Assembly: GCA_905330235.1 (NCBI GenBank)
Contig: CAJNUA010000005.1
Span: forward strand, 400,093-434,696
From: Rotaria sp.
Taxonomy: Eukaryota
Direction of reading: 5' to 3'
Length of the DNA: 34,604 bases
Below are positions 6,272 through 33,756 of this stretch, one piece after another. Both the position numbers and the translations under genes were made by a program. Position 1 is the stretch's first letter; each line of letters starts with the position of its first letter. The notes beneath the pieces were generated by a model that saw nothing but the letters and a program-made list of their open reading frames with translations, was not told where the DNA came from and did no database searches.

Positions 6272-8551
6272 TATTTGCGTTATGATGCTGATCACCATCA
6301 CCTTTCTCTTATTCGCCTTTGGCTGCACTGTTATTGACTGTAACGAATGTCGTCTTGAGCATATAGGCAGATGATAGACGGGCGGAAAATGAGTACACTA
6401 TACAATCGAATAAACTTCAGGATAGCAGTATATAAGAAAGACGGAAAAGGATGAGCACATCGATAAGAGGTCTGATGAGAAAAAAAAAGAAGAATGAAAG
6501 AAGAGCCGAGATGGATGTCAACCAAATCAATTTCATTCGTATGTCGTTCATCGTTTGACTAATCATTGTCATAATCAGTACGGAACATCGGCGATGCATA
6601 CTATTATTATTATTATAACAAACAAATATACATGTACATAAAAATCAGGAGATGAAAAACAAAATGATAAGATCTTCATTTAAACATTTATATGGATTCA
6701 TTTGTGAACAGATATGAAGGTCATATATTATTCGTTTTTAATAGAGGCAACGCAGTTCATTCTTGAAAACAAATTTAGCATTATGTCCATATGGTGAAAA
6801 AGAAACACCTGTGAAGTTTTTAAAGGCAAGAACATTTATTTATTCTTCTCTATATTTCTTAATCCAAATGAGAGTCGATGAATGAATAGTATGATTTTCA
6901 GAAATGTCTTTTTTTAGTTCATGTTATCTGAATGAACATTTCATTCAAATGATCATCTCTTCTTAAATGATGAAAAACCAAAAAAGAAATCTCCAGAGAA
7001 AAGCATCGAGTCTTGACGTTCCAACCGGATATTAAATTTGTCCGTCATGACTATAATCTAGTTTAGGCTCTCTTGTTGACATTTTTTTTCCTTGAAACCA
7101 ATAATAAAAATAGCGATTAATGATGGATTAATTTTCAATTTGTCTTTATCGTTGCAGAAATAGAAATTTAATTGTCGTCTAATTCAATCAAACGATGAAT
7201 AGCAAAGCAACTGTCTTATAGAACAGACAGACCATTGATTAAAAAAAGACTTACAAACGCAGTTTTTTGTTGCTTTATGTTTATATGTCATGGAAGTAGA
7301 ACAAATAATCTTTAAACGGATTTTAACTAAGATAAAAACATTCAACTATTGTTCAATCACACGTAAAAGCTTAAAATACATGTATATTTACAAGAAATTC
7401 ATATTAAATTGCAAAATATATATTTTTTTAGCCTTTGTATATTATTCACAAATATTCAATTGATTTAATATCTTTACAATGGTTACATTTAAATGCAAGA
7501 TCAAAGTACATCTGAAGATTTGCATATCTCACGCGCATGTATGAAAAAAACAATTGTATGTAGTTTTTAAGTAAAACATACGAAACTCTTATCTGTGAAT
7601 ATACTTGCCTGTATTACAGTTGTGTAAATAGGATGATCAAAGTGTTCATTGTAATGTACTTTCAAGATGAACACAATTTTATCAAATTCTACATATCAAT
7701 TCAAAAACGGTTGTATTCATGAAAACTATCACTAAAACGATTCTGTGTTCCAATGCAAGGTTTTACTATGTTGTAGTATGCATGACACTACATACAAGTG
7801 TTTTGTTCTTTGTATAATTATTCATATTTCGTTAAAGATCAACTTATTCTTCAATAATTATCTTATATTAGTTGAAAAAAGACTTGCTCTTTTTTCTTTT
7901 CTAATTCTTCAATAGTTTTTATATTTATGATCTCATAAGTATCAGATGATCATTAATTCCTCCTGCTTTAATGGCACTTGTAATATCAGTAGATGGTTGT
8001 ATGATGAAAAATATTATGTTCAAAATCAAATTATGTATGTTCGAGTCTTATATCGGAAAAAGACACAATGCTCATGTATCATTGCTACAATATTCTTCTT
8101 TTTTTTTTGAGATACTCTAGCACTTTTTTCCGATGCACACACGAGAGCTTTTTGTAATCACATTGGCATATTCTTCCCATATGATAATATAATGCTGCAT
8201 GTATAAACGACAATTCCCATATGTATAAAACGCAAATATAATATAGTCTATGACGCACTCATATGTACATCATGTAAAAGTGACTTGTGCATGTTTACGT
8301 AGTGTTGTTATGTGATTATAGACAATTTTTTGACAATTGAAAATACATAGGTGAAAATGTTTTGTATTCTACCTTAAGTTATCGAATATAAAATTTAGAC
8401 GAGATATTCATATTAATAATAAACAATTAATTGTCTTAAATTGTATTTGAAAGAAAGATTTCACATTTATTTTATATATAATTTATATCAGAAATTAGAC
8501 AATTATAACAAATAGATAAATACACAAACAAACACAAGCATTGAGTAGTCT

Positions 8552-9698
8552 TCATTTCATATAATAGTCACACTTAAGTATTGGACAATCACCGTGTACA
8601 TCTATTGGTAAATAATCATAATAGAGTGTATAAGTTGGAAATGATTGATTATGTGTACCATCTACATATGTACCTGTATAGGAATAGTTTTCAAGTGAAC
8701 GCATCGGATCTAAAAGAGTATTACGTGAACGAATGTTTTCACGACATATACTAACAGATCGTGTGACTAAATCTGTTTTATCAATAATCATTTTTGATAG
8801 AGCATAGATACTCGTATGATCTGGTACAGTAATGTGTATATGACCTGGGTATTCATTGTAGAAATCGAATGTGATATAACGAAGATGAATAGTAACATAT
8901 CTATTTACAAACACAAGAGAATCTATCATATCTTAAAACGTATTGAAATTACCTAGCTTGATTTAATTGTAAAGATTCATTAAATTTTTGCTGAAATTCT
9001 TTTGAAGACTTTTTTTCAAGAATAATATTATTTGTTTTTGGTACAGATAATTTTGTTATGTATCGTAAAATACCATTACCGAGTTTTTCATCTAGTATTG
9101 CTTGATAATCAATTAAATCTTCGATTTCGAATAATTTTGTAAGAACAAAAACATCTTCTATAGACATTTCAGGTAATTGATCTTTGATAACTAAGAATAA
9201 AAATAAAAATTTCATTTGAATATAAATAATAACATAGCAAAAATGATTTTCTAATTACTAAGTCGAAATTGTTCATATAGTAAACGACCGGAATGTAGTT
9301 TATCTAGTGAACGGCAAACAGTAAGTAATCTTGTTTTGTGACCTAATAATAATGAATTAATACGTTCACATACAGTGTTCAATTGTTCGGGAGAAGTAAA
9401 TATTGTTTTTGTTAATTTTGTTAAACGTTCCTATATTAGAAAATATTATTAGTAATATTTTTCTTATTATGAAAATCTTCACAAGTTCTTTTTGACGAAG
9501 AGATTTGATTTTCTTTTTTTTCTTCGTTTCCTTATCAACTGTTCCTTCATTTTGTTCGAATTGGAGAGATTGAATTAAGGATATTGTTGTTGATGGTACT
9601 TGTTTAGTATTGGACGCTTCATCTGATGAAGATTCTACATCAAAAGATTCGATAGTTTCTATCGTCTGTTGTTGTTGTTCTTCGTCGGTAGTCTCCAT
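8552..9698 (-). CDS. Conserved hypothetical protein, 4 exons: complement(join(8552..8900,8953..9190,9259..9430,9483..9698)), ~324 aa, no family recognised
   Basis: Four long ORF segments on the minus strand join with GT/AG introns of 52, 68 and 52 nt and consistent phases (216+172+238+349 = 975 nt). The N-terminus is acidic/Q-rich (METTDEEQQQQ...KKKKKIK). The C-terminal exon is Tyr-rich (...GHIHITVPDH...TLYYDYLPIDVHGDCPILKCDYYMK*). The ATG at 9698 was chosen as the start although an upstream in-frame Met exists at 9791. Confidence 0.55.
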
Positions 9699-10354
9699 TT
9701 TACAATCAAGAAGAACAGAAAGAAAAAGAAAACGATTGATGATGCTGTTTAGCGGCATCTTACTATGGACACAAGAATGCATGATTTGCATATCGTATCG
9801 ATTTCAACAGTGTAGAGAACAATGTAATGTGAGATTTCTTTTATAATTACTTTCAGATAGATGATCAGAACGAATATACAATAACGAAAAACTCATTCAT
9901 CGAATAGATTATCTTTTTTTCAAATTTACAATATTTATTGACTAATATAATCAATAGCAGTGACTGATTATTGATTCAATATAGTTTATTAATGCATTGA
10001 TCCATATGATTTGTTATAACATTTTCTTCAACTCTAAAAAGTGTACACATATGACATCCAACGAATAGAAATTATTAAGTTGTCGAAGATTGTACGATGA
10101 TGTAAAAGTTTTGGTTGGTGAAATCTACATGGCCAGCCATTGATCACTCGCACATGGGAAAGATTCGAATTAAAAAGTGAAGAAAGCCAACGAGAAAACC
10201 TCTTCAGATGTCAAATCGATTTTCAACCGAGACAATGTTCATTTGATGAGTACTAGTGATTAATAGAAAAATGTAGAATAGTTTGGTTTTTGGGGCTTTA
10301 TTCTTCAGATATCGAAATTTTACTTTTTTTTTTAACAAAAAGCTCTGATCCATG

Positions 10355-10656
10355 TCAGGTCAGCTGGAAAGTCGACTTTCGAGTTTCGACTTCAAACTTT
10401 GCACAAAGCACTTAATGAGATTCGTTGATTGTACAATTTTTATCTTTTTTAGTATTTTCTTTTTGGAGATATATATATATATATATATATAAACATAATT
10501 TGTTCTAACCTATGAGAGGATTTGGAATATGCAATATCTCAGAATCGGAGATACTAGAATAACTATAACTTGTTCAATTAATTAATCTCACTGAGAACTT
10601 TGTTCGCGCAAAGTTTGATGTCAAAATTCGAAAGTCAATTTTCTACATGACCTGAA
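10355..10656. mobile_element. Foldback / MITE-like element: imperfect inverted-repeat arms (10355..10418 and 10588..10656, ~78% identical over ~65 bp) flanking a ~170-bp loop that contains (AT)11 at 10469..10490
   Basis: The left arm caggtcagctggaaagtcgactttcgagtttcgacttcaaactttgcacaaagcac matches the reverse complement of the right arm (caggtcatgtagaaaattgactttcgaattttgacatcaaactttgcgcgaacaaag). No ORF is present. The same arm family recurs at 22725..23065. Confidence 0.6.
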
Positions 10657-13600
10657 GGGCACCACAACTTTTTGTTTAAAAATCCCAGTAAAATTTCGAT
10701 ATCTCAAGAACGAAGGCCCGGTAAACCAAATTATTTTAGTTTTTCTATTACTCAATAGTACTCATTAAATGAGCATCGTCTCGATCAAAAAGAGACTTGA
10801 CACCTAGAGAAATTCTTTCGTGAATGTATCATTGAAAATTAGAACGATCTGCAATATTTGAAATGGAAGTGGTTCTATTCACCAACAGAATTGAATTCTG
10901 TGAAAACGTGAAATCTTTCTTAGAGTGAACAACTCGAAAATCAGTTTGTGTAAAAGGCAGTAGTAGAACACATTGTCAAACAACGACTGATCAAGAGGGA
11001 AAAAATCTTCAATCAGTTATTAATCGATCGGATACGAAGTACTCTTTCAACATATAACCTTCGTATAAATGTTAGATGTTCATGAACCAAGATGAAGTGT
11101 TCAAAAGCCATCTCTATTTTGTAACGGAAATCGTTTGTAGTATATTTTGCTCGTTTATATTGGCAATTTCCGCAACAAAAATTACGCCTCCAGATAGAGT
11201 TAAACAAGCTCCATCGAACACACCCATTTCGAGTGTATCTTGATTAGATCATTAAACGCTTTACATTGTTTTTTTTCAAAAGTATGCACATATTTGGAGT
11301 GAGCATCGAATTCTGAACAAAATAGAGTGTTTAGCTAATCAAAACTTAAGCTTTTATTTTTCTCAAAAGTTCTTCGAGTCGAAAAAGCTTGAGTATATTG
11401 TTTTTGTTTGATTCTAGTGAAAAACACATCATTTGATGTAGAATTCGATGGTGGTGACGAATAGCTAGTTCCTTTCAACTTTTTTGCTTTCATGCTGATT
11501 CAAGATACGATTTTTAGAAAAACAATGAAATTCTGTAACGCACACTATTTTTAGTTTTTTTTTCTATGTAGTTATGCTTTTTAAAAAATGGACTGATATT
11601 CTAAAAGCTTGTTAAAAACTGAACAACTTTATTATAGAAAGTTTATTTGTATGTTGTTTCGTTTTGTAGTAAAATGTTAAACTGTTAGTCCCGCTGTAAA
11701 AATTCCATTTTTTTAAAATTTTATAACAGCCGATATTTTATAAAGAGCTCAATTCGAGCTACAGAAAAATCAATGAAATTTTCTACTGATAGTAGATCTA
11801 AATGGTTTCTATCTATAATAAAAGTTTCAAAGACTTTGTTTTTGATTTAGACGAGAAATAGATGTTACAATCTTACAAAAATGAAACTCCGTAACACTTG
11901 GCGACACCGAGTTTGCTTTTTTTTCGATTTATGCATTGCTTCAATACAGCAGATCAATTTTCTGGTGTCAAGGAATTACATTTCTTTGAGTTTTTGTAAT
12001 ATTTTTAGCTGCATAATAGATTCAAAATAAGCTTCTTTTTCCAAATGATAAAGATCTAAAGAAAGTTCGGCACTGTTCAATAGCTTATTGCCCTTACCTA
12101 TGAGGTTTCTTCAATTAGCATAACGACTTATTCTATGATGAATACAGAGTTCTAATTTTCTTCTTTCTAAAAATATGATCCTGATATCCGTGTGGTTTTT
12201 TTCGAGATAAAAAAAACTAATCTGCACTGTTAGTAATAAAAGTCGTATTGATAGTAGATTGCTCTTTTTGCTAAAACTTGAAACGACTGTAGTCATCACA
12301 GGGTGTCCAAACGACGACGATCAATGACACAGTACTAAAAATTTTTCTTCATGATGTTCGGCTTTTCTGATAATCAAAAGAGTTTGTCGTATACATTGCC
12401 ACCTGATTGGACTGTTGTATCTTTGATGTATTGGAAGAAGACTGTACGTCTATAGGACGTAAACTGATCACTTTCAATTAGATTATTTTTATCTATATCC
12501 AAGGATGGGATAATAAAAATACAGTAAAGTCTCTATTCTCTGAACCCTATTGAGACCAATCAAAAGTGTCCACTCTAGAGAGTTGAAGCATGATTTGGTG
12601 TGAAATAAAGAAAAAATTTCAGAAAATCTGCTTCTATAATTGCCATAGATAAAGGCCTAACTGTCCATTCTCTTTTTCATCTATCTTCATCGGAATGATT
12701 TGAATTGAAAGATTTTTCAAGTAAAACACAAAATACAATTGTTTTTAAAAAGAATCTTCTAATTTTGTTTGTCTTTTTGCTGTTGAACTAAGTTTTTTGT
12801 ACCTTGTTGTACAAACTATTCGTACACTTGATTGTCTAGTTTTTGTATATTGACACGTTTTTATTTTCGTCTAACATTTTGATTCTGATTGATTTCGTAA
12901 TCATTTCAATATTCTATTTTATGTTTTAAAATATTTGATGCAGAGCTGAGTGAGATATAATATATGTTTTTTCATTCAATTTATGTTATAATATACTATT
13001 ACCATCGTTATTATCATGAATGAATAGTATTTTTTTTCTTGCAAAGTAAGTTTGCGTCGTGATATCATTCTTTACTTTACACATATAGCAGTCGAATCTT
13101 ACACAAAATCCATTTACCCATAGTGTATACCAAACAGGTGACAAAAAAAGAGAAGGATGTCACAAAAACATATTCACATTAGAGATTATAATAGCAAAAG
13201 AGACTACATAACTGTTCACATTAAAGAGAGGCATTTACAGCAAAATCGCTCTATCGGACCCAAAACCGTTCATAACTAGAAGATGTTTATTTTAGAGAAG
13301 TATTCAATAGTAGAGGTTTTACAATATATGCAGACTTTAGTAATTGTTTCCAAGGATAATTTTCATGTGAATAGAATAAATAATTTTCTTTCTGATAAGT
13401 TATTTAACTGAGTCTCTTAAACATCAATAATGTTTTTATCTCTCATCTTAATATGAATACTGAAAATAACATCACGTTCTCCTCTAACTTTCGAGTCTGT
13501 GCTAATATTTCTAATCACCAAATACCTATAGAATTCTACGTATTCTATCGATATGTTGAAAACTAAATAAAGAAATACTAATATTTTTTATTTGCCTTTG

Positions 13601-13854
13601 ATGACATTACTTATTGTGCTTACTATCGCAAAATCAAAAGCTACGAACATTTGCTTTAAAAAAAAAAGAACCAAGAAAAAAAAGAGATAGCATAGAAAAA
13701 AAAGCAGACATCTGTTGCTACTTTATTTTATTTTTAGTTGTATAAAAAATGGTTATGTGAGAGCAAGAGACGAAACAAGACATAAGAGAAATGTATCAGA
13801 TGACGACTTTGGTTTAGTCCTTTAAGCATTTGTGATTGTAATGATTTAAAATAT

Positions 13855-21900: not shown

Positions 21901-24900
21901 CTGATTTCATTGAAGAATTATCTTGTTCAAGATTAATTGACGGAAGTATTGTTTGATCTTTCATTTGTAAAGCTTGTTTTGATTGCCATGAAGCTACTTT
22001 AGCTGGCAAACGAAATATAATATCATTACTTTCAATAGATAATTCAGCAACATATGTGATTTTAATAATCACTTCACAATTAGCTGGTAAATTACCAACC
22101 GATACACTGAATACTTCAGGTTGTTCTTGATGCATTAAATATGCGCCATGACCTTTTTCAATAGCTTCACGATATTCACGTTTAGCTTGTTCTTTTTCTT
22201 TAACAACACCTTTAATTATTTTATTATTAATATGAGCTTCAAAACCACAAACCGAAGAATTTTCATCCAGAGGAAATACATATTTTGCTTCAATTGGTAC
22301 TGAACTTGAATTATGATAAACTTGATAAAGAACAACCTAAAATAATTTATAAAAGGTGTTTTGTTTTTACAGAAAAGAAAATTATTTAATTTACTTCAGC
22401 AGTAACATCAACAAGTTGTGCACGAATATGAAAAGCTTTCAGTGGAACAAGTTCACCTGACGATGGACAAACTAAACCATAGTCTTGTTCTGCTACTTGA
22501 ATTACTTCATCTTCGATTGTTGAAGGAATATCTACTGAAATAAATATATACATGTATGATAACTACTTTATCGACTGCAATACTAACGAAGGAACGCTTC
22601 TAAGTGTCAAATCGTTTTTGAATCGGGACGACGTGGATCATATAGGCTCTAATCCACTATGAATACTCTGAAAAGAGTTCAGACTAACAGCTTATTACAA
22701 CTGAGATATTGTATTTTTTAGTAGAATTCCGTGATCGCTCTTAGAAATACTAGAAAAACTAAGTTTTGAATTTTGATTTGAAACTTTACATGAAAACAAG
22801 CCCTAATGAGAATAGTTTATTGTAAAAGTTTGAGATCTTTTGATTATTTCTATCCTAAGATACGGCTATTGTAGTAAAAGCATGTTTTTCACGCAGCTCA
22901 TATACGTCGACGTATTCCAATGTTCTTATTTCAAAATAGATGCAATCGAAAAATCTGAAACTTTCACAATAAACTATTCCCATTAAGGCTTGTCTGTGTG
23001 CAAAGTTTCAAATTGAAATTCAAAGCTCAGTTTTTCTAGTGTTCATGAGAGAGCCACAGTATTCTGCTAAGAAATTCGGTAAAAATATAGTATCTCGACA
23101 GCAATTAGCTTTTAGTCCAAATTCTTTTTCAGGTATTTGTATCTCATTAGAGCCTACACGATACACCTATTCTCGATTCAAAAGCAGTTTGACAGTTATA
23201 AACGTTCCTTCATTAGTTTAAATCATTTTCTTTATAATATTGCTGGAGATTGCTCAATCGAAAATATATAAATGGTTAATGAATTACAGAGATATTGACC
23301 AGAAGTTGCTCTTGTAACGTTATATCTAACCGTGACCCATTTATCAAAGAGTCACTGTATGAGAGTCACGCATCGATTCTACTGAACTGAAAATTTCAAA
23401 CTTTTGTTCACATTTGCGCATAGGCCTAACTGTAGTTTTTAAGAGAAAATATGTGAAGGAATTCTATCGCGCTAATCTAAAGAAAAGTTATCTACATGAT
23501 GAAGTGCTCTAAAGCCACTCTATACACCTTTGTAACAGACTTTTTTCAGACCAGTACGTTGAAACTGTTTGAAACATTTTTCTCCGAAGACTAATCACGT
23601 AAATTTATCTGGATACGTAAGCAAATGTTTGAGATCTTCAATTGAGCTGAAGCATTCATGAGTCTCATTTCATAATTCATGTCAACTGTTTATAGAGAAG
23701 TTGAACGGTTACCGATATTTATTTAAAATACCAGATATATTTGAACTTATTCTATTAATAGTATATAATACATCTTCATTGCATCAAAAGGGAGCTATAT
23801 TTCTGAAGAGTCAGTCTTTACTCTCAGCTGATCTCCATCTTTATGTGTCGTTCTTGTTATCACCTTCAACTAATTATCTGCCTTCAACTTAGTTTCTTTC
23901 ATTTGGTAGTAACATAAGTAATGAGATTTAGAGAAAAATCTAAGAAATCCCTAAAAAAACTACTCTTGGAAGCTGTTACTATGAGGATGACAAACGTCTT
24001 ATCTAGGGATCAATATATTACGATAAAGATTTATCGAAGAGAATCGACACGAAATTAAGACGAAATATGAATGCTGTTATATATTATGACTTATCTGTGA
24101 TTTGGTTAGAAAAACCTGATTACCTTCATCTGACAGTGATTTTGACTGATTTGTTACAGAATCACGAATAATAGGTACTAATTTTGGTGATTGATCCGTA
24201 TTGTCATATGGTATCCATGAAAGTTCAACAAGATAAAGTAATCGTTGTTGATCAAGATTATAAATAGCATATTCATCATCCTAAATAAACATTATAATAG
24301 AAATCTGATCGAAAACATGACTTATTCCTTACAATAAACTTTGAATTATTTTCATCATTTTTTTTTACTCCATGTGTACTATGAAAATTTTCAGGCGGCT
24401 GTGTTAAATTTGGTGAATATGAATAGAATGTAGCAGAATCTCCTAATGCTACTTGAGATATACATAATAATCGTCTACCAGGACGTGTTATACTTGGTGT
24501 TGTATATTTTAATGATGTTGAAACTGAATCAGAAAAATAAAGTCCATATCCTAAGCACCCAATATCAGTACGTGCAACTCCTAAATCATTAGCAACTACT
24601 TTTGGCATAAGAAGACCACTAAAAAGAAAATTAAAAAAAAATTGAATATAAAATTAAAAAGGACGATTGTTTTGTTTTGGATCGATTTACCGTGATAAAA
24701 TACCAAGAAAATTATTATATTTTGATCCATGAAAAAGTTGTTTTTGATTATACAGTGTTGAACAAAAATTCAATGCATCTGTTTGTTTAGCTACACTATA
24801 TATTTGATGAATAATTACTTGTTCATTTCTGCAAAAATATAAAATTTTTGATTTTATTTTGGTAATTACAAACAACAACAAAATACGAACACATTCGTTG

Positions 24901-28613: not shown

Positions 28614-29984
28614 TTTATTAACAAAAAAAGCAAAATCTAGAAAAAATGAACCAAAAATTTTTTTTGTTTTTGCTTTTTGTCTGTTGCATTCGAAAGAAAT
28701 ACGAAAAGAAAACTTTGTTACAACAGAAACACACAAAAAAAGAAAAGAAGAAGACATTTTCTCTCATTTCGGCCTTATACATATATCTGTAAGTTGAGAG
28801 AACAAGGGTAACAAGAGCACACAAACACACACAAACAAATAAACGAAAAAAAAAGAAGAAAAGAGAGACAAATACGAAATGAACATTTTCGATTTTTTTT
28901 TCTTGTTTTATTTTCAAAATACATATCAGTGTTTAAGTTTATAATAGGAATTAAACTAGACAAAAGATAGAGTCAATGTATACAAGTTGAACGATATACT
29001 CACATAAACATATAGAAAAAAAACTTATTTACAGAGACAAACTACAGTGATCATCAATTACATGTGGAGAAGTATATGCGAACTGTGTAAAAAAAAAACA
29101 AAAAAAAAGAACAACAAAAGCATTATTTTGTTTGTCTCTCTTCCTTTTTCTCTCTTTTCATTGTATGTTTACGATAATGATTAATTTAGATTAAGATACT
29201 GCCCATTTTCTTTAAGCCAATCAACAGCACATGCTTTTACATGCGCCGTTATTCCTTGACATTTGAGTGATTTTCGACATTGAACATTTGGCTAAAGAAA
29301 ACAATTCATTGCATTCAAAAACTTCACTAATTCTCAATTTATTTTTGAGTAAGTTCAGATGGACTTATATAAAATAGGACAGTTCTGTAGATTAGTTTTA
29401 GTGAAGAACAATTCTTTTCAACGTATCGCATTTCAAACGATATAACCTAAGCTGACTGAAATTCGAATGAACATAATCTATAAAATTCATTTTATGCTGA
29501 GTTCAAGTTTTTGCAATGTTTTCATAGAAAATATGCTGTTGCATAGGTATACAATGTTCATTTACTCTTTTTCGAATTCAATTTTAAATGAATAAATTAT
29601 AGACAACGTGAGAAAATATTTCTAAAAAGCGAAAGGCTAATTTTTTCCAGGAAATCAAAAAGAAACCAATTCTTGACGATGATTATTTATTAGTTCATTT
29701 CTCATCAAAATTCTAAATTTGTTTTTACTAAAGAAGTAAATTGAACAATTTTCAGATAGATTTTTTTTATTGAGAAAGTCATAATCATTTTGCTGTCTTG
29801 ACAATCTTGAACTTAATACAACACAATCGAAAATTTTTTCCATTCTTTAATCTTAAAACGAATAAGATTTGCTAAAAATTGCTCAGGAAAGACTTCGAAT
29901 TGAATATCCTTCAAATCGAGTTTTGAAACTAAAATAAATCTCTGATTTGAAATTTGTATATTGAATTAATTTTTTCATACTTAC

Positions 29985-30923
29985 ACATTCATATTCTCCT
30001 TCAGCGTTTTTCATTAGTAAAGTCACAATTTTATTTTTACCACTTCGTCGTTTTTTAACTGCATTGACTGCTAGTTGCTGTGATGATCGATCTTGATGAT
30101 GTGAATTTGTTTGATGATGATTACCATGTCCAGTACTTGTATGATGTTGTTGATGATGTGATGGAAGTTTATTGGGATTAGTTGTACCACTACCATTTTG
30201 TTGTGCAGTTAAATTATGATGTGCAAGATGATGATTTGTTGCACCAGCAGCAAGTGCAGCAGCAGCAGCTGCTGCTGTTGATGCTGCTGCAGCTTGTTGT
30301 TGTGTTGTTTGACTAATATAACCACATTGATGTTGTATAAGTGCTGCTTGTGACATAGAAATTTTTCCAACTGTAGCCCATCTCTCAAGTAATTCACATA
30401 GTGTACGCTGTTTTTCATCTAGTACTTGTGCTGTTGTTGATGTTGGTTGTTGTTGAGACGTTGTCAATAATGCACGAATATTTGCTTTGACTATATTCGT
30501 TTCTATTGATACCAAAAAAGAAAAAAAATTAACTAAGAAAAGAAAAGCTAAATGTTCTTTTTACCATTAATTAATTGTTCAATTTCATATCGTAATAAAT
30601 TTTCATGTTCATGTATATGATCAATACAAAGTAATAAATGACAATGTGGACCTAATATTGAAGCAGAAAAAAAATATATTGAAATTAAATAAATTCAAAT
30701 AGAAAATCTTACAAGAAACATAAAGATTTCTTGAACACGTTAATAAACCATTTTCATTTCTATGTTGACATTTAACGGATATTGTTTGGCATATACCAGA
30801 AAAATAAAGTGACGATGCTTGATCATCAGCTGTTTGTTGTGTTGCAGCCATATGTGTGCCGGCTGCCATTTTATTCGAAGAAACAAAAGAGTAAAATTTT
30901 GAAGTTCTTTCTTTGTAAACCAA
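29985..30923 (-). CDS. Gln/His/Ala-rich low-complexity protein with an N-terminal Cys/His cluster. Three exons placed: complement(join(29985..30502,30565..30651,30713..30923)). The 3' terminal exon is unresolved (candidate 29235..29291)
   Basis: The spliced product is MAAGTHMAATQQTADDQASSLYFSGICQTISVKCQHRNENGLLTCSRNLYVS|CPHCHLLLCIDHIHEHENLLRYEIEQLING|ETNIVKANIRALL...LCELLERWATVGKISMSQAALIQHQCGYISQTTQQQAAAAS...HHQQHHTSTGHGNHHQTNSHHQDRSSQQ...KKRRSGKNKIVTLLMKNAEGEYEC|. Donors are gtaaga, gtaaaa and gtaagt. No confident family assignment could be made. Confidence 0.45.
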
Positions 30924-33756
30924 CTTTGAATTTGAATTAATTAAAATGCAAAAAAAAAGAAATAAAATTAATAATAAATGTTGATCTTGTTTTTTTTTTT
31001 GGTTTTGGTATTATTTAATTGGAAATATAAACAAGAAAATAAAATGGCAGCGTTCAATTAGACTTGACAAGAGAATCTAAAGAGAATAAACAATAATCGT
31101 AATTGACGATCTTTTGACAAAAGAAATTCCAGCTGATCCAACTTCATTATCCATACTTTACATTGGAAATGTTGAGGATCAACAGCCATCATGATTTCTG
31201 TTGACATTCATTATGTGTAGAGGTCTTTGTGCTAATTTTTTTTTTTTGATACGATATTAGCGACATCATTGATATCAACGACGATTGACATGAAATCATT
31301 TATTTATTTATTTGAAATGAAAACTAATATTATTTGAAAAAGATTAAATGCTTGGTTTAGGTTTCGAAAGAAGAATAAAATTATTTGATAGATGATGAAT
31401 CATCACTACTAGAGTGGTGGCTTTTTTGACAAAAAGATTTCGATTGGTGTTTTGTATTCAAAGTGAGTTTTTTACTGATAGTGTTAGAATTTTTGTTTTT
31501 GATATAAGGAAAATAATGCTGGATTTATTATACATAGATATTTAATGGATTGTTATTAAAAAAACAAACTATGTATGATTGCAAATAATAACAAAATACT
31601 TGACACACTGTTATTGAAATATATTTTGAATTTTCAGAAGATCGTACCGAATATGAACTTTCTAGTAACATATAAATTAATGAAGAACTTGGAATACACT
31701 TGAGTCTTGTCTATATTGTTACTTAATGTCTTCTCAACTTATTTTTAAAAGAAAATATTCAACAAAAAAAAGTCTAGAATGAATAAGAAATAGACTGGTT
31801 TCTATTAATAGAACTCACTTCTATTCAAGTTAACGAAAGTTTATGAAGACCAAATAGATCTGTATAATTTAAACATTGATGATCGTAACTTATGAATAAA
31901 AAAATCTTTGCAAAATATGTCTGTTCAATATTCCTGCATTTAGAAAAAATCTTTGATGAAGGTGCAAATCGACGTTTGTACAAATTTTTCATATTGTTTA
32001 TTTTAGTATTTTGATTAAAAATGCCTCAATCCAAACTATAAGAAAATCTTTTCATACACTAGCTTGTAGGAGGATATTTGATCTATAAAATGTCCAATTT
32101 GTTTATCTTTTTATATGTTACTACAAATGATCGAAATCTGTTCCATTTAAAATATTGAAATTTGTAAAACGAACGAGTTTGTTTGAAAAATGCTGTCTAA
32201 CTTATGGAGTTAATATTCGAAAAATGTTTATAGTTTTCTGTTCTTTTGAGTTCTAGCTTATTAGAAACCTAAACCATGATTTTATAGAAAATTAAATTCT
32301 CTATAGCAATAAAAAATCAAAACTACATCAACATACCCTTCAGAGAAGTTATAACTGATAGGAAAAAGTTTATTGGTCTTGCGAGGAAAACCCTTCAATT
32401 GAATAAATGCCTTTGATTCGAGTTTATGTGCAAGGTGTAAATTCTAATAAGCTATGATTAACTTGAAAAAAAATGATGTCACTTCTCTTGTATCTGTTGA
32501 GATATTGTAGTTTTATGGTACTTTTTAAGTCAATATCGATTATATGAACAAGTTTACCATCATTTACATTAATAACTACTATATTAAATAACACGAAATG
32601 AAAAGCAATTTTAACTGATGTTGAAAGATCCAGTTAAATCACCAGTAATATTATAACCAAAGATATGGAATACAAAGTTGTATATTCGCGTTATATATCT
32701 GACAGTCAGCTACGTACTGATTTACCGCAAGAATTTTACCAATGGTGGACAACATACTATGTTTATGATGAATCACCAGTTCAATGCGATAAAATTCGGC
32801 TAGTAACAAATACGCATTGCACGCTGAAAAGTTTCTTTATACAAGAGACCTCCACGTAACATGGAAAACACATAGACGACAGTCATTTCGATATTGTCAT
32901 CAAAATCCAAGAGAAACAAAAGATCTAAGCAAAACTTCTATAACCGTGAAATGTATTATAATGTAGCGACAATCTAGATGCATAGTTTACTGCTATCCTC
33001 GTTAATAGTGTTTATTGAATTATTTCGTATGCCCATGTTGTACTTGATTCACATAGAGCATACGCTTATATAGAAGAGAGCAAGATAGGAATGAGCACAG
33101 GAAAGAACCATAGAGATAAGATAAAGAGGTAAGAGGTAAGAAAGATCAATAGGAAGGGATATCAGTATCGGCACACATACAATTTGTACACTATTTATAG
33201 AAACCAAAATAGATATTCATCTCCAACATATACAGCGTTTTCTCTATTATCGAATATTCAATAAGTAGTCAAGCACTACTGTCTTTCATGTTAACATGAA
33301 CTCTTATCCTAGATTTATTCAACTTCAGACAATTTAATCAGCAACTGATTCAATATTAAAAGCACATCCTACTATACGAAGTCAACAAGATGAAAACAAC
33401 TTCAATTACATCCTTTATCATAGATTTACACTGTAACTGCTAAATTTCGAAACGTGTCGTATCGATGCGGTAACTTTTGCTTCTATAAGTGCACATTCAC
33501 ACCCACAGCTGGAAGTGCTTGTGGTTTCAAAACTGGCTCATGTTATTTCTTCAGAATGTATTCTTATTTCTTGATTTTGTTCCTATTATGGTGAAGCGCA
33601 TCATTCCCGTTGGAAAAGTTCACCAGAGATTGTTTAATTTGCGATTGAAAACTGTTAGTTTAGTTGAAATCAATGATAGTCTAGGGTTAGTATAAACGAA
33701 GTTCTTTCGTGTCATATTGAGAATTTAAGCAAGTTCTTTTTCAGAGTATCTATGAA

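Follow-up and report, generated by a model that had tools for sequence, protein, structure and literature searches.

The window, by which we mean the whole stretch of 34,604 nt that was analysed, is AT-rich eukaryotic DNA in which introns are very short. Its minus strand carries a PARP4-like gene, whose spliced model encodes about 1,650 residues and has the domain order of PARP4, namely BRCT, PARP regulatory and catalytic, VIT and vWA. Pfam recognises the VIT (2e-37), PARP catalytic (2e-23) and VWA_3 (2e-14) domains, and gives weak matches for BRCT and PARP_reg. The closest homologues are proteins of Rotaria and Didymodactylos, and identity to the proteins named PARP4 in cnidarians, fishes and birds is 36-45%. 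The homologue search also brought up VIT-vWA proteins of other lineages which have no PARP domain. A single intron of the gene is long and holds a foldback (inverted-repeat) element, here called copy B, of which the window contains a second copy (copy A) and a fragment. The features discussed below are the following; no strand is assigned to the foldback sequences.

10190..10821, no strand: foldback copy A, with arms 10190-10476 and 10527-10821 that are 76.9% identical, in a lineage-specific intergenic block
22395..22534, minus strand: exon downstream of the long intron, residues 618-664, start of VIT
22535..24123, minus strand: long PARP4 intron, 1,589 nt, GTAATC...TTTCAG, phase 1, after residue 617 (from the spliced model; site and phase also seen in loci L003 and L048)
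22535..22581, minus strand: 3' tail of the intron, 47 nt from hairpin base to acceptor, its last ~26 nt alignable with R. magnacalcarata
22582..22876, no strand: acceptor-side arm of foldback copy B (repeat finder, gapped alignment and fold)
22877..22912, no strand: loop of copy B, 36 nt (repeat finder)
22913..23217, no strand: donor-side arm of copy B (repeat finder, gapped alignment and fold)
23218..24123, minus strand: 5' part of the intron, 906 nt, non-repetitive and non-coding, colinear with R. sordida locus L042 at 78% identity
24124..24280, minus strand: exon upstream of the long intron, residues 566-617, end of the PARP region and linker
32391..32530, no strand: third, partial foldback copy, the outer part of one arm (120-140 nt, ~65% identical; blastn/alignment)

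A first-pass annotation, made from the sequence alone, had singled out one PARP4 intron as exceptionally long, and this is borne out by its 1,589 nt against 39-72 nt for the rest. The count given there, 17 other introns of 41-72 nt, was right in that all of them are short; the spliced model has about 18, of 39-72 nt. Two junctions of this model lie a few codons off in comparison with the R. magnacalcarata protein, which affects neither the range of intron lengths nor the contrast. The PARP match of Pfam ends at residue 568 and VIT begins at residue 637, so that the long intron lies in the linker, at the PARP/VIT boundary where it had been placed.

Copy B measures 636 nt, and the repeat finder reports it as two adjacent inverted pairs that form a single structure. 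Of the 293 aligned positions in a gapped alignment of the arms, which also has 14 gap columns, 224 match and 69 differ (by 47 transitions and 22 transversions); this corresponds to 76.5% identity, and blastn aligns arm with arm at E = 1e-103; the inverted-repeat element proposed for this intron is thus present. A perfect 14-nt mini-palindrome, ATACGTCGACGTAT, at 22902-22915 starts in the loop and enters the donor-side arm by 3 nt. The sense-strand RNA is predicted to fold into one long hairpin with a minimum free energy of -271 kcal/mol, against -133 +/- 8 kcal/mol for shuffled sequences (z = -16.8). The earlier description of a ~90-bp hairpin with 80% identical arms at 22700-23090 had the hairpin right and its size wrong: it spans ~300 bp at 22582-23217, about three times as long, with arms of 76.5% identity. 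Between donor and hairpin there are 906 nt, and between hairpin and acceptor 47 nt. The hairpin therefore cannot bring the splice sites together, contrary to what had been suggested, and would loop out 636 nt only. The 47-nt tail, 22535..22581, must hold both the branch point and the pyrimidine tract. The longest start-to-stop open reading frame inside the foldback has 60 aa, and six-frame Pfam scans, which covered the flanks of the foldbacks only (23200-24130 and the block around copy A), gave no coding remnants. The arms contain no tandem subrepeats; Tandem Repeats Finder lists nothing beyond an (AT)11 run and two micro-arrays, one of 20 nt and one of 21 nt. An Rfam scan of 22300-24400 yielded only chance matches below threshold (the best, mir-722, scored 27 bits where the gathering score is 81), and no tRNA genes were found in the window. 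Inspection of the flanks of copies A and B showed no matching direct repeat; the ends are ~12% diverged per arm, and the neighbouring DNA is itself inserted.

The remaining 906 nt of the intron contain no repeats, open reading frames, Pfam match or Rfam family above threshold, and their fold signal is weak (z = -2.3). Apart from the R. sordida orthologue, no other copy of this part exists in the window or in the fetched loci, and a search for inverted repeats that would bracket the entire 1.5-kb insertion, or for repeats within the 906 nt, gave short chance matches only. This part may have arrived together with the foldback or earlier.

Two full copies of the element and one fragment, three instances in all, are dispersed within the 34.6 kb. 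Copies A and B are alike in size and layout and align end to end at 65-67% identity (blastn E = 1e-24), and copy A is predicted to fold at -259 kcal/mol (z = -22). A foldback of the same family had been noted at 10355..10656; the family match stands, while the true extent is 10190-10821. When the four arms are aligned, 43 columns have the arms agreeing within a copy and differing between copies, against 10 for the two alternative two-plus-two splits together. Because the arms group by copy, each copy would have descended from a palindromic master, and such grouping looks like the behaviour of a foldback-type mobile element, unlike that of a single local duplication. Metagenome contigs were also searched for a degenerate 24-nt motif present in each of the four arms of the window. 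This gave chance matches only: 28 contigs with a single match, mostly GC-rich, of which none resembles the element by blastn. The homologue search with the gene adjoining copy A returned no annotated Rotaria protein.

Orthologous loci were retrieved via homologous proteins and compared at the intron that follows residue 617. In two bdelloid contigs from JGI metagenomes (L003 and L048) the intron has 51 nt, stands at the identical codon in the same phase and is without the foldback; in Rotaria sp. Silwood2 (L002) it has ~62 nt. In more distant bdelloid contigs from ENA (L004-L010) the intron is missing and the reading frame is continuous. The six R. sordida assemblies (L042-L047), in contrast to these empty sites, are filled: their intron of 1,772 nt is colinear with that of the window and contains the same foldback (L042, 17891-18525), with two local indels, ~85 nt extra in the window and ~230 nt extra in R. 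sordida. The species of the window is a bdelloid rotifer, close to R. sordida. The comparison supports the earlier suggestion that the element is an insertion. That annotation had named a long orthologous intron lacking the repeat as the observation that would count against it; what we found were short introns without the repeat and, in R. sordida, a long intron with it. In R. magnacalcarata (L011-L013) the intron has 340 nt and no foldback. Only ~45 nt at its 5' end and ~26 nt at its 3' end align with the window intron, and internal alignment scores equal those of shuffled sequences. The introns of R. magnacalcarata and of the window may nevertheless have had a common expanded ancestor, since the divergence of R. 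magnacalcarata is too great for old homology to be detected, and the 340 nt could be what is left of an earlier expansion, now beyond alignment.

The age of the insertion can be read from the arms themselves. Between the window and R. sordida, exon dS is 0.13-0.15, and between the window and R. magnacalcarata 0.33-0.44; the intron differs from that of R. sordida by ~22% (~0.26 corrected), and the Jukes-Cantor distance from arm to arm in copy B is 0.28. When the two arms of the window and the two of R. sordida are compared over 290 positions, the four arms agree at 170 and a single arm has changed at 75, evenly spread over the four (20, 16, 16 and 23), whereas only 16 are arm mismatches common to both species. 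So few common mismatches, together with the evenly spread single-arm changes, indicate that the element was almost perfectly palindromic when R. sordida and the window lineage parted. Its entry is accordingly dated shortly before this event and later than the divergence of R. magnacalcarata. The equal arm divergence of copies A and B suggests one period of activity.

We therefore propose, with good though not full confidence, that copy B is a non-autonomous palindromic foldback (MITE-like) DNA transposon which decays neutrally in a once-short PARP4 intron. An ancestral intron of ~50-70 nt at the PARP/VIT linker would have taken up extra DNA, of which at least 636 nt would be the palindromic foldback transposon, nearly perfect on arrival, and this would have happened not long before R. 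sordida and the window lineage separated. Since then the whole intron, element included, would have decayed neutrally while still being removed. In the pre-mRNA the arms would form an imperfect duplex of ~300 bp, ~85% paired, looping out 40% of the intron, and this looping-out would follow passively from the sequence, without having been selected for.

The stability of the predicted sense-strand hairpin, its retention in two species and its position 47 nt from the acceptor could point to a functional RNA, either a source of hairpin-RNA, endo-siRNA or miRNA-like products, or a structure that shortens the effective intron and aids or modulates splicing. The rates of change argue against this. 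Identity between the window and R. sordida is 78.3% in the 5' non-repeat part of the intron, 77.0% in the donor-side arm, 77.8% in the loop, 78.4% in the acceptor-side arm and 76.6% in the 3' tail; the arms change at the rate of the flanking intron, and all segments diverge faster than synonymous sites. Loss of pairing is equal in the two lineages, with 36 pairs lost in R. sordida and kept in the window and 31 the reverse. Mismatches compatible with G:U pairing are symmetric between the strands (24 on the sense and 23 on the antisense strand), and the opposite strand folds nearly as well, at -258 kcal/mol. Changes in both arms are in mild excess (25 observed against ~14 expected if the arms were independent), yet pairing is retained in only 8 of these 25 pairs, so that compensatory changes are at chance level among the double changes; a slight excess where both arms changed together (8 observed against ~3.5 expected) counts in favour of a functional hairpin. 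Mirrored mutable contexts, arm-to-arm conversion or weak selection could produce the excess of 25 over ~14, which we do not read as selection. Neither pairing conserved beyond the neutral level nor a strand-specific tolerance of G:U, by which a functional hairpin would be recognised, was found; no Rfam family reaches threshold, and the intergenic copy A shows the same properties. As the arms and flanks have equal rates and pair loss is symmetric, nothing indicates that the hairpin is maintained, and its structure appears to decay neutrally and not to be kept by selection. A functional RNA is therefore very unlikely, and the comparison lends no support to a role in splicing or in small-RNA production.

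A second alternative takes the 1.6 kb as a spacer with an internal promoter or terminator that yields separate BRCT-PARP and VIT-vWA products, with the gene splitting at the junction, which the first-pass annotation had named as a place where the gene could be split in other lineages. Predicted gene models seem to speak for it, since PARP-only models end here in R. magnacalcarata and in two of the six R. sordida assemblies, where a model of 603 residues stops at the long intron. In the other four R. sordida assemblies, however, the halves are joined, in models that even extend into the HSP70 gene next to it. Those of R. magnacalcarata are in four pieces, with cuts also at gaps of ~10 and ~100 nt, so that the split models look like prediction artefacts. 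The window has an in-frame ATG 19 nt upstream of the acceptor from which a separate VIT-vWA product might start, but this ATG is out of frame in R. sordida, and the in-frame methionine that follows is already within VIT. On either side of the intron the reading frame stays open; dN/dS in the exons upstream as well as downstream is 0.15-0.22 in the comparison with R. magnacalcarata and 0.20-0.38 in that with R. sordida, so that both halves of PARP4 are under purifying selection. The long intron has kept the donor, acceptor and phase of its 51-nt counterpart in the relatives. We infer that the long intron is still spliced out, since both halves are constrained and a disabled downstream half would have gained stop codons by now. 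The occurrence of PARP-less VIT-vWA proteins in other lineages and the independent expansion, in several copies, of the introns flanking the linker exon (see below) fit a split. With the only splits seen being those of gene prediction, both sides constrained and the splice phase conserved, a divided gene nonetheless has little probability.

That the palindrome was made in place by a local inverted duplication, for instance in break repair, with no mobile element involved, would agree with the fact that neither a target-site duplication nor an autonomous partner was found, and bdelloids do repair many double-strand breaks, but it has hardly any probability given a second copy 12 kb off with the same ends, arm length and symmetry centre, a third fragment, and four arms that group by copy at 43 against 10 positions. 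Introner elements are transposons that create new introns, and like them the foldback makes up a large share of the intron that holds it; the intron here, unlike theirs, predates the element, since relatives without it (L003 and L048) have the 51-nt intron at the same codon and phase, and the introner idea is rejected.

The foldback transposon that we propose can be set beside several known systems. As in palindromic MITEs and foldback-like non-autonomous transposons, nearly the whole element consists of inverted arms and a short loop and is non-coding, several dispersed copies exist and are present or absent at orthologous sites, and the arms are closer within a copy than between copies. In contrast to typical MITEs, it has no readable target-site duplication, no terminus diagnostic of a superfamily and no known autonomous partner, and with ~636 nt and arms of ~295 nt it stands at the long end of their range. 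It shares long, hairpin-forming inverted arms with the Drosophila FB element, whose arms are built of tandem subrepeats; the window arms are without such arrays. Transcribed long inverted repeats, as in hairpin-RNA loci, give dsRNA that Dicer can cleave, and the window element, if transcribed, would do so in the manner of endo-siRNA loci and MITE-derived miRNA precursors, but in contrast to these it shows no selection on structure. Human intronic inverted Alu pairs likewise form a duplex in the pre-mRNA, as the intronic arms of the window would. These arms, unlike the Alu pairs, are adjacent and part of one element; with no exon between them, they lack the arrangement that exon circularisation needs.

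Foldback-like insertions and MITEs have already been reported in bdelloids, and we regard the window foldback as an uncharacterised element with an ordinary explanation. Insertion of a foldback-like DNA transposon has been described as an indel polymorphism in bdelloid gene-rich contigs, regions which are otherwise poor in transposons (PMC2861651), and MITEs form a small fraction of bdelloid repeats (PMC7943196). Our understanding of PARP4, vaults and splicing is unchanged by the finding. Its value is that of a dated case, in which a palindromic element would have entered an intron of the 50-nt class in a conserved gene, been tolerated and decayed at the neutral rate in two species. The locus also offers a yardstick for that rate, with an intron divergence of 0.26 against 0.14 at synonymous sites, and the copies of the window can serve as a seed for defining a Rotaria foldback family. 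Annotators should be aware that gene models break at the long PARP4 intron in several Rotaria assemblies.

In the loci examined, long PARP4 introns are concentrated at the two positions on either side of the 52-codon linker exon, and nearly all remaining introns of the gene have ~50 nt. The lengths after residues 565 and 617 are as follows.

Window: 52 nt after 565; 1,589 nt after 617; none long elsewhere
R. sordida copy 1 (L042): short after 565; 1,772 nt after 617, in common with the window; none long elsewhere
R. magnacalcarata (L011): 53 nt after 565; 340 nt after 617; none long elsewhere
R. sordida second copy (L050): 344 nt after 565; ~1,059 nt after 617; none long elsewhere
Rotaria sp. 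Silwood2 (L002): 1,381 nt after 565; ~62 nt after 617; elsewhere 726 nt at residue 1241

Since bdelloids are degenerate tetraploids (PMC2861651), each species is expected to have a second, diverged copy of PARP4, such as that of R. sordida. If the window site is taken as given, three of the four further expansions fall in two of ~19 introns, for which a rough binomial P is 0.004; it is 0.03 when both cases at residue 565 are counted as one event, and either value is post hoc and drawn from a small sample. The pattern is suggestive of independent expansion of the linker-flanking introns in several copies or lineages. One could speculate that the linker is a preferred or tolerated landing zone, that it marks an internal transcript boundary for separate PARP and VIT-vWA products, and that the hairpin feeds the expanded RNAi of bdelloids with siRNAs against its own family, but we consider this improbable. 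The inserted sequences of the different loci are mutually unrelated, and the intron after residue 617 in the second R. sordida copy has a pair of 36-nt inverted repeats at its ends.

Several bdelloid contigs (L004-L010, from ENA) lack the PARP4 intron after residue 617, the 1,589-nt intron at window 22535-24123 (minus strand), and their reading frame is uninterrupted at that point. Two homologous proteins, P0003 and P0005, are also continuous through the following PARP4 intron position, at residue 664. Bdelloids are therefore polymorphic for the presence or absence of introns in PARP4. Long introns that are independent of the one in the window lie at or adjoining the PARP/VIT junction in further PARP4 copies and in other species.

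Long PARP4 introns in other copies and species
L050 (second R. sordida copy), within 6460-8020: intron after residue 617, ~1,059 nt
L050, within 6460-8020: intron after residue 565, 344 nt
L002 (Rotaria sp. Silwood2), 6505-7888: intron after residue 565, 1,381 nt
L002, 10145-10870: intron at residue 1241, 726 nt
L011 (R. magnacalcarata), 12376-12715: intron after residue 617, 340 nt

The sequences of the long introns in L050, L002 and L011 are unrelated to that of the window PARP4 intron. The L050 intron after residue 617 holds two 36-nt arms in inverted orientation (6992-7027 and 7834-7869), which may be the termini of a further element.

Comparison of the window with R. sordida gives a corrected divergence of ~0.26 for the intron at 22535-24123 and a synonymous divergence of 0.13-0.15 for the exons on either side. 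The nearly twofold ratio of intron to synonymous divergence suggests either that the synonymous sites are constrained or that the inserted DNA has a higher mutation rate. An ATG at window 22553 (MYIFISVDIPST...) lies 19 nt upstream of the acceptor and is in frame with the downstream exon. This ATG is probably fortuitous, because in R. sordida a 1-nt indel shifts it out of frame.

Annotated gene models are broken at or near the residue-617 intron in R. magnacalcarata and in two of the six R. sordida assemblies, and in the remaining R. sordida models PARP4 is fused to the downstream HSP70 gene. The 12,010-nt R. magnacalcarata contig L001 stops exactly where the exon preceding this intron ends.

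Further features were identified in the window and in the R. sordida locus L042.

Features outside the long PARP4 intron
Window 30869..29184, minus strand: highly conserved 290-residue gene neighbouring PARP4
Window 10190-10821: foldback copy A, inside the block 9900-13672
Window 32391-32530: outer-arm fragment of the copy A/B foldback family, ~65% identical to copy B (the foldback in the long PARP4 intron)
L042 5497-6578 (R. sordida): partial duplicate covering residues ~1315-1590 in the C-terminal region of PARP4

The last intron of the 290-residue gene is ~690 nt long (window 29293-29983, minus strand), and therefore PARP4 is not alone in having long introns in the window. In R. sordida and R. 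magnacalcarata, too, the DNA span of the orthologue of this gene far exceeds its coding length.

A 3.4-kb stretch around foldback copy A is without counterpart in the colinear bdelloid metagenome contig L048, in which 8685..9039 corresponds to window 13673..9899. Neither long ORFs nor Pfam matches occur in the remainder of the copy A block (9900-13672). A second block of ~1.2 kb (window 7170-8550) is also missing from L048, where 10364..10532 corresponds to window 8551..7169. Relative to L048, the window lineage displays several non-coding expansions. The foldback fragment at 32391-32530 is without a partner arm, and its counterpart was not found in L042.

The R. sordida duplicate precedes the start of PARP4 by ~8 kb and shares 74% nucleotide identity with window 20285-19249; its matching position would be just beyond the window edge.
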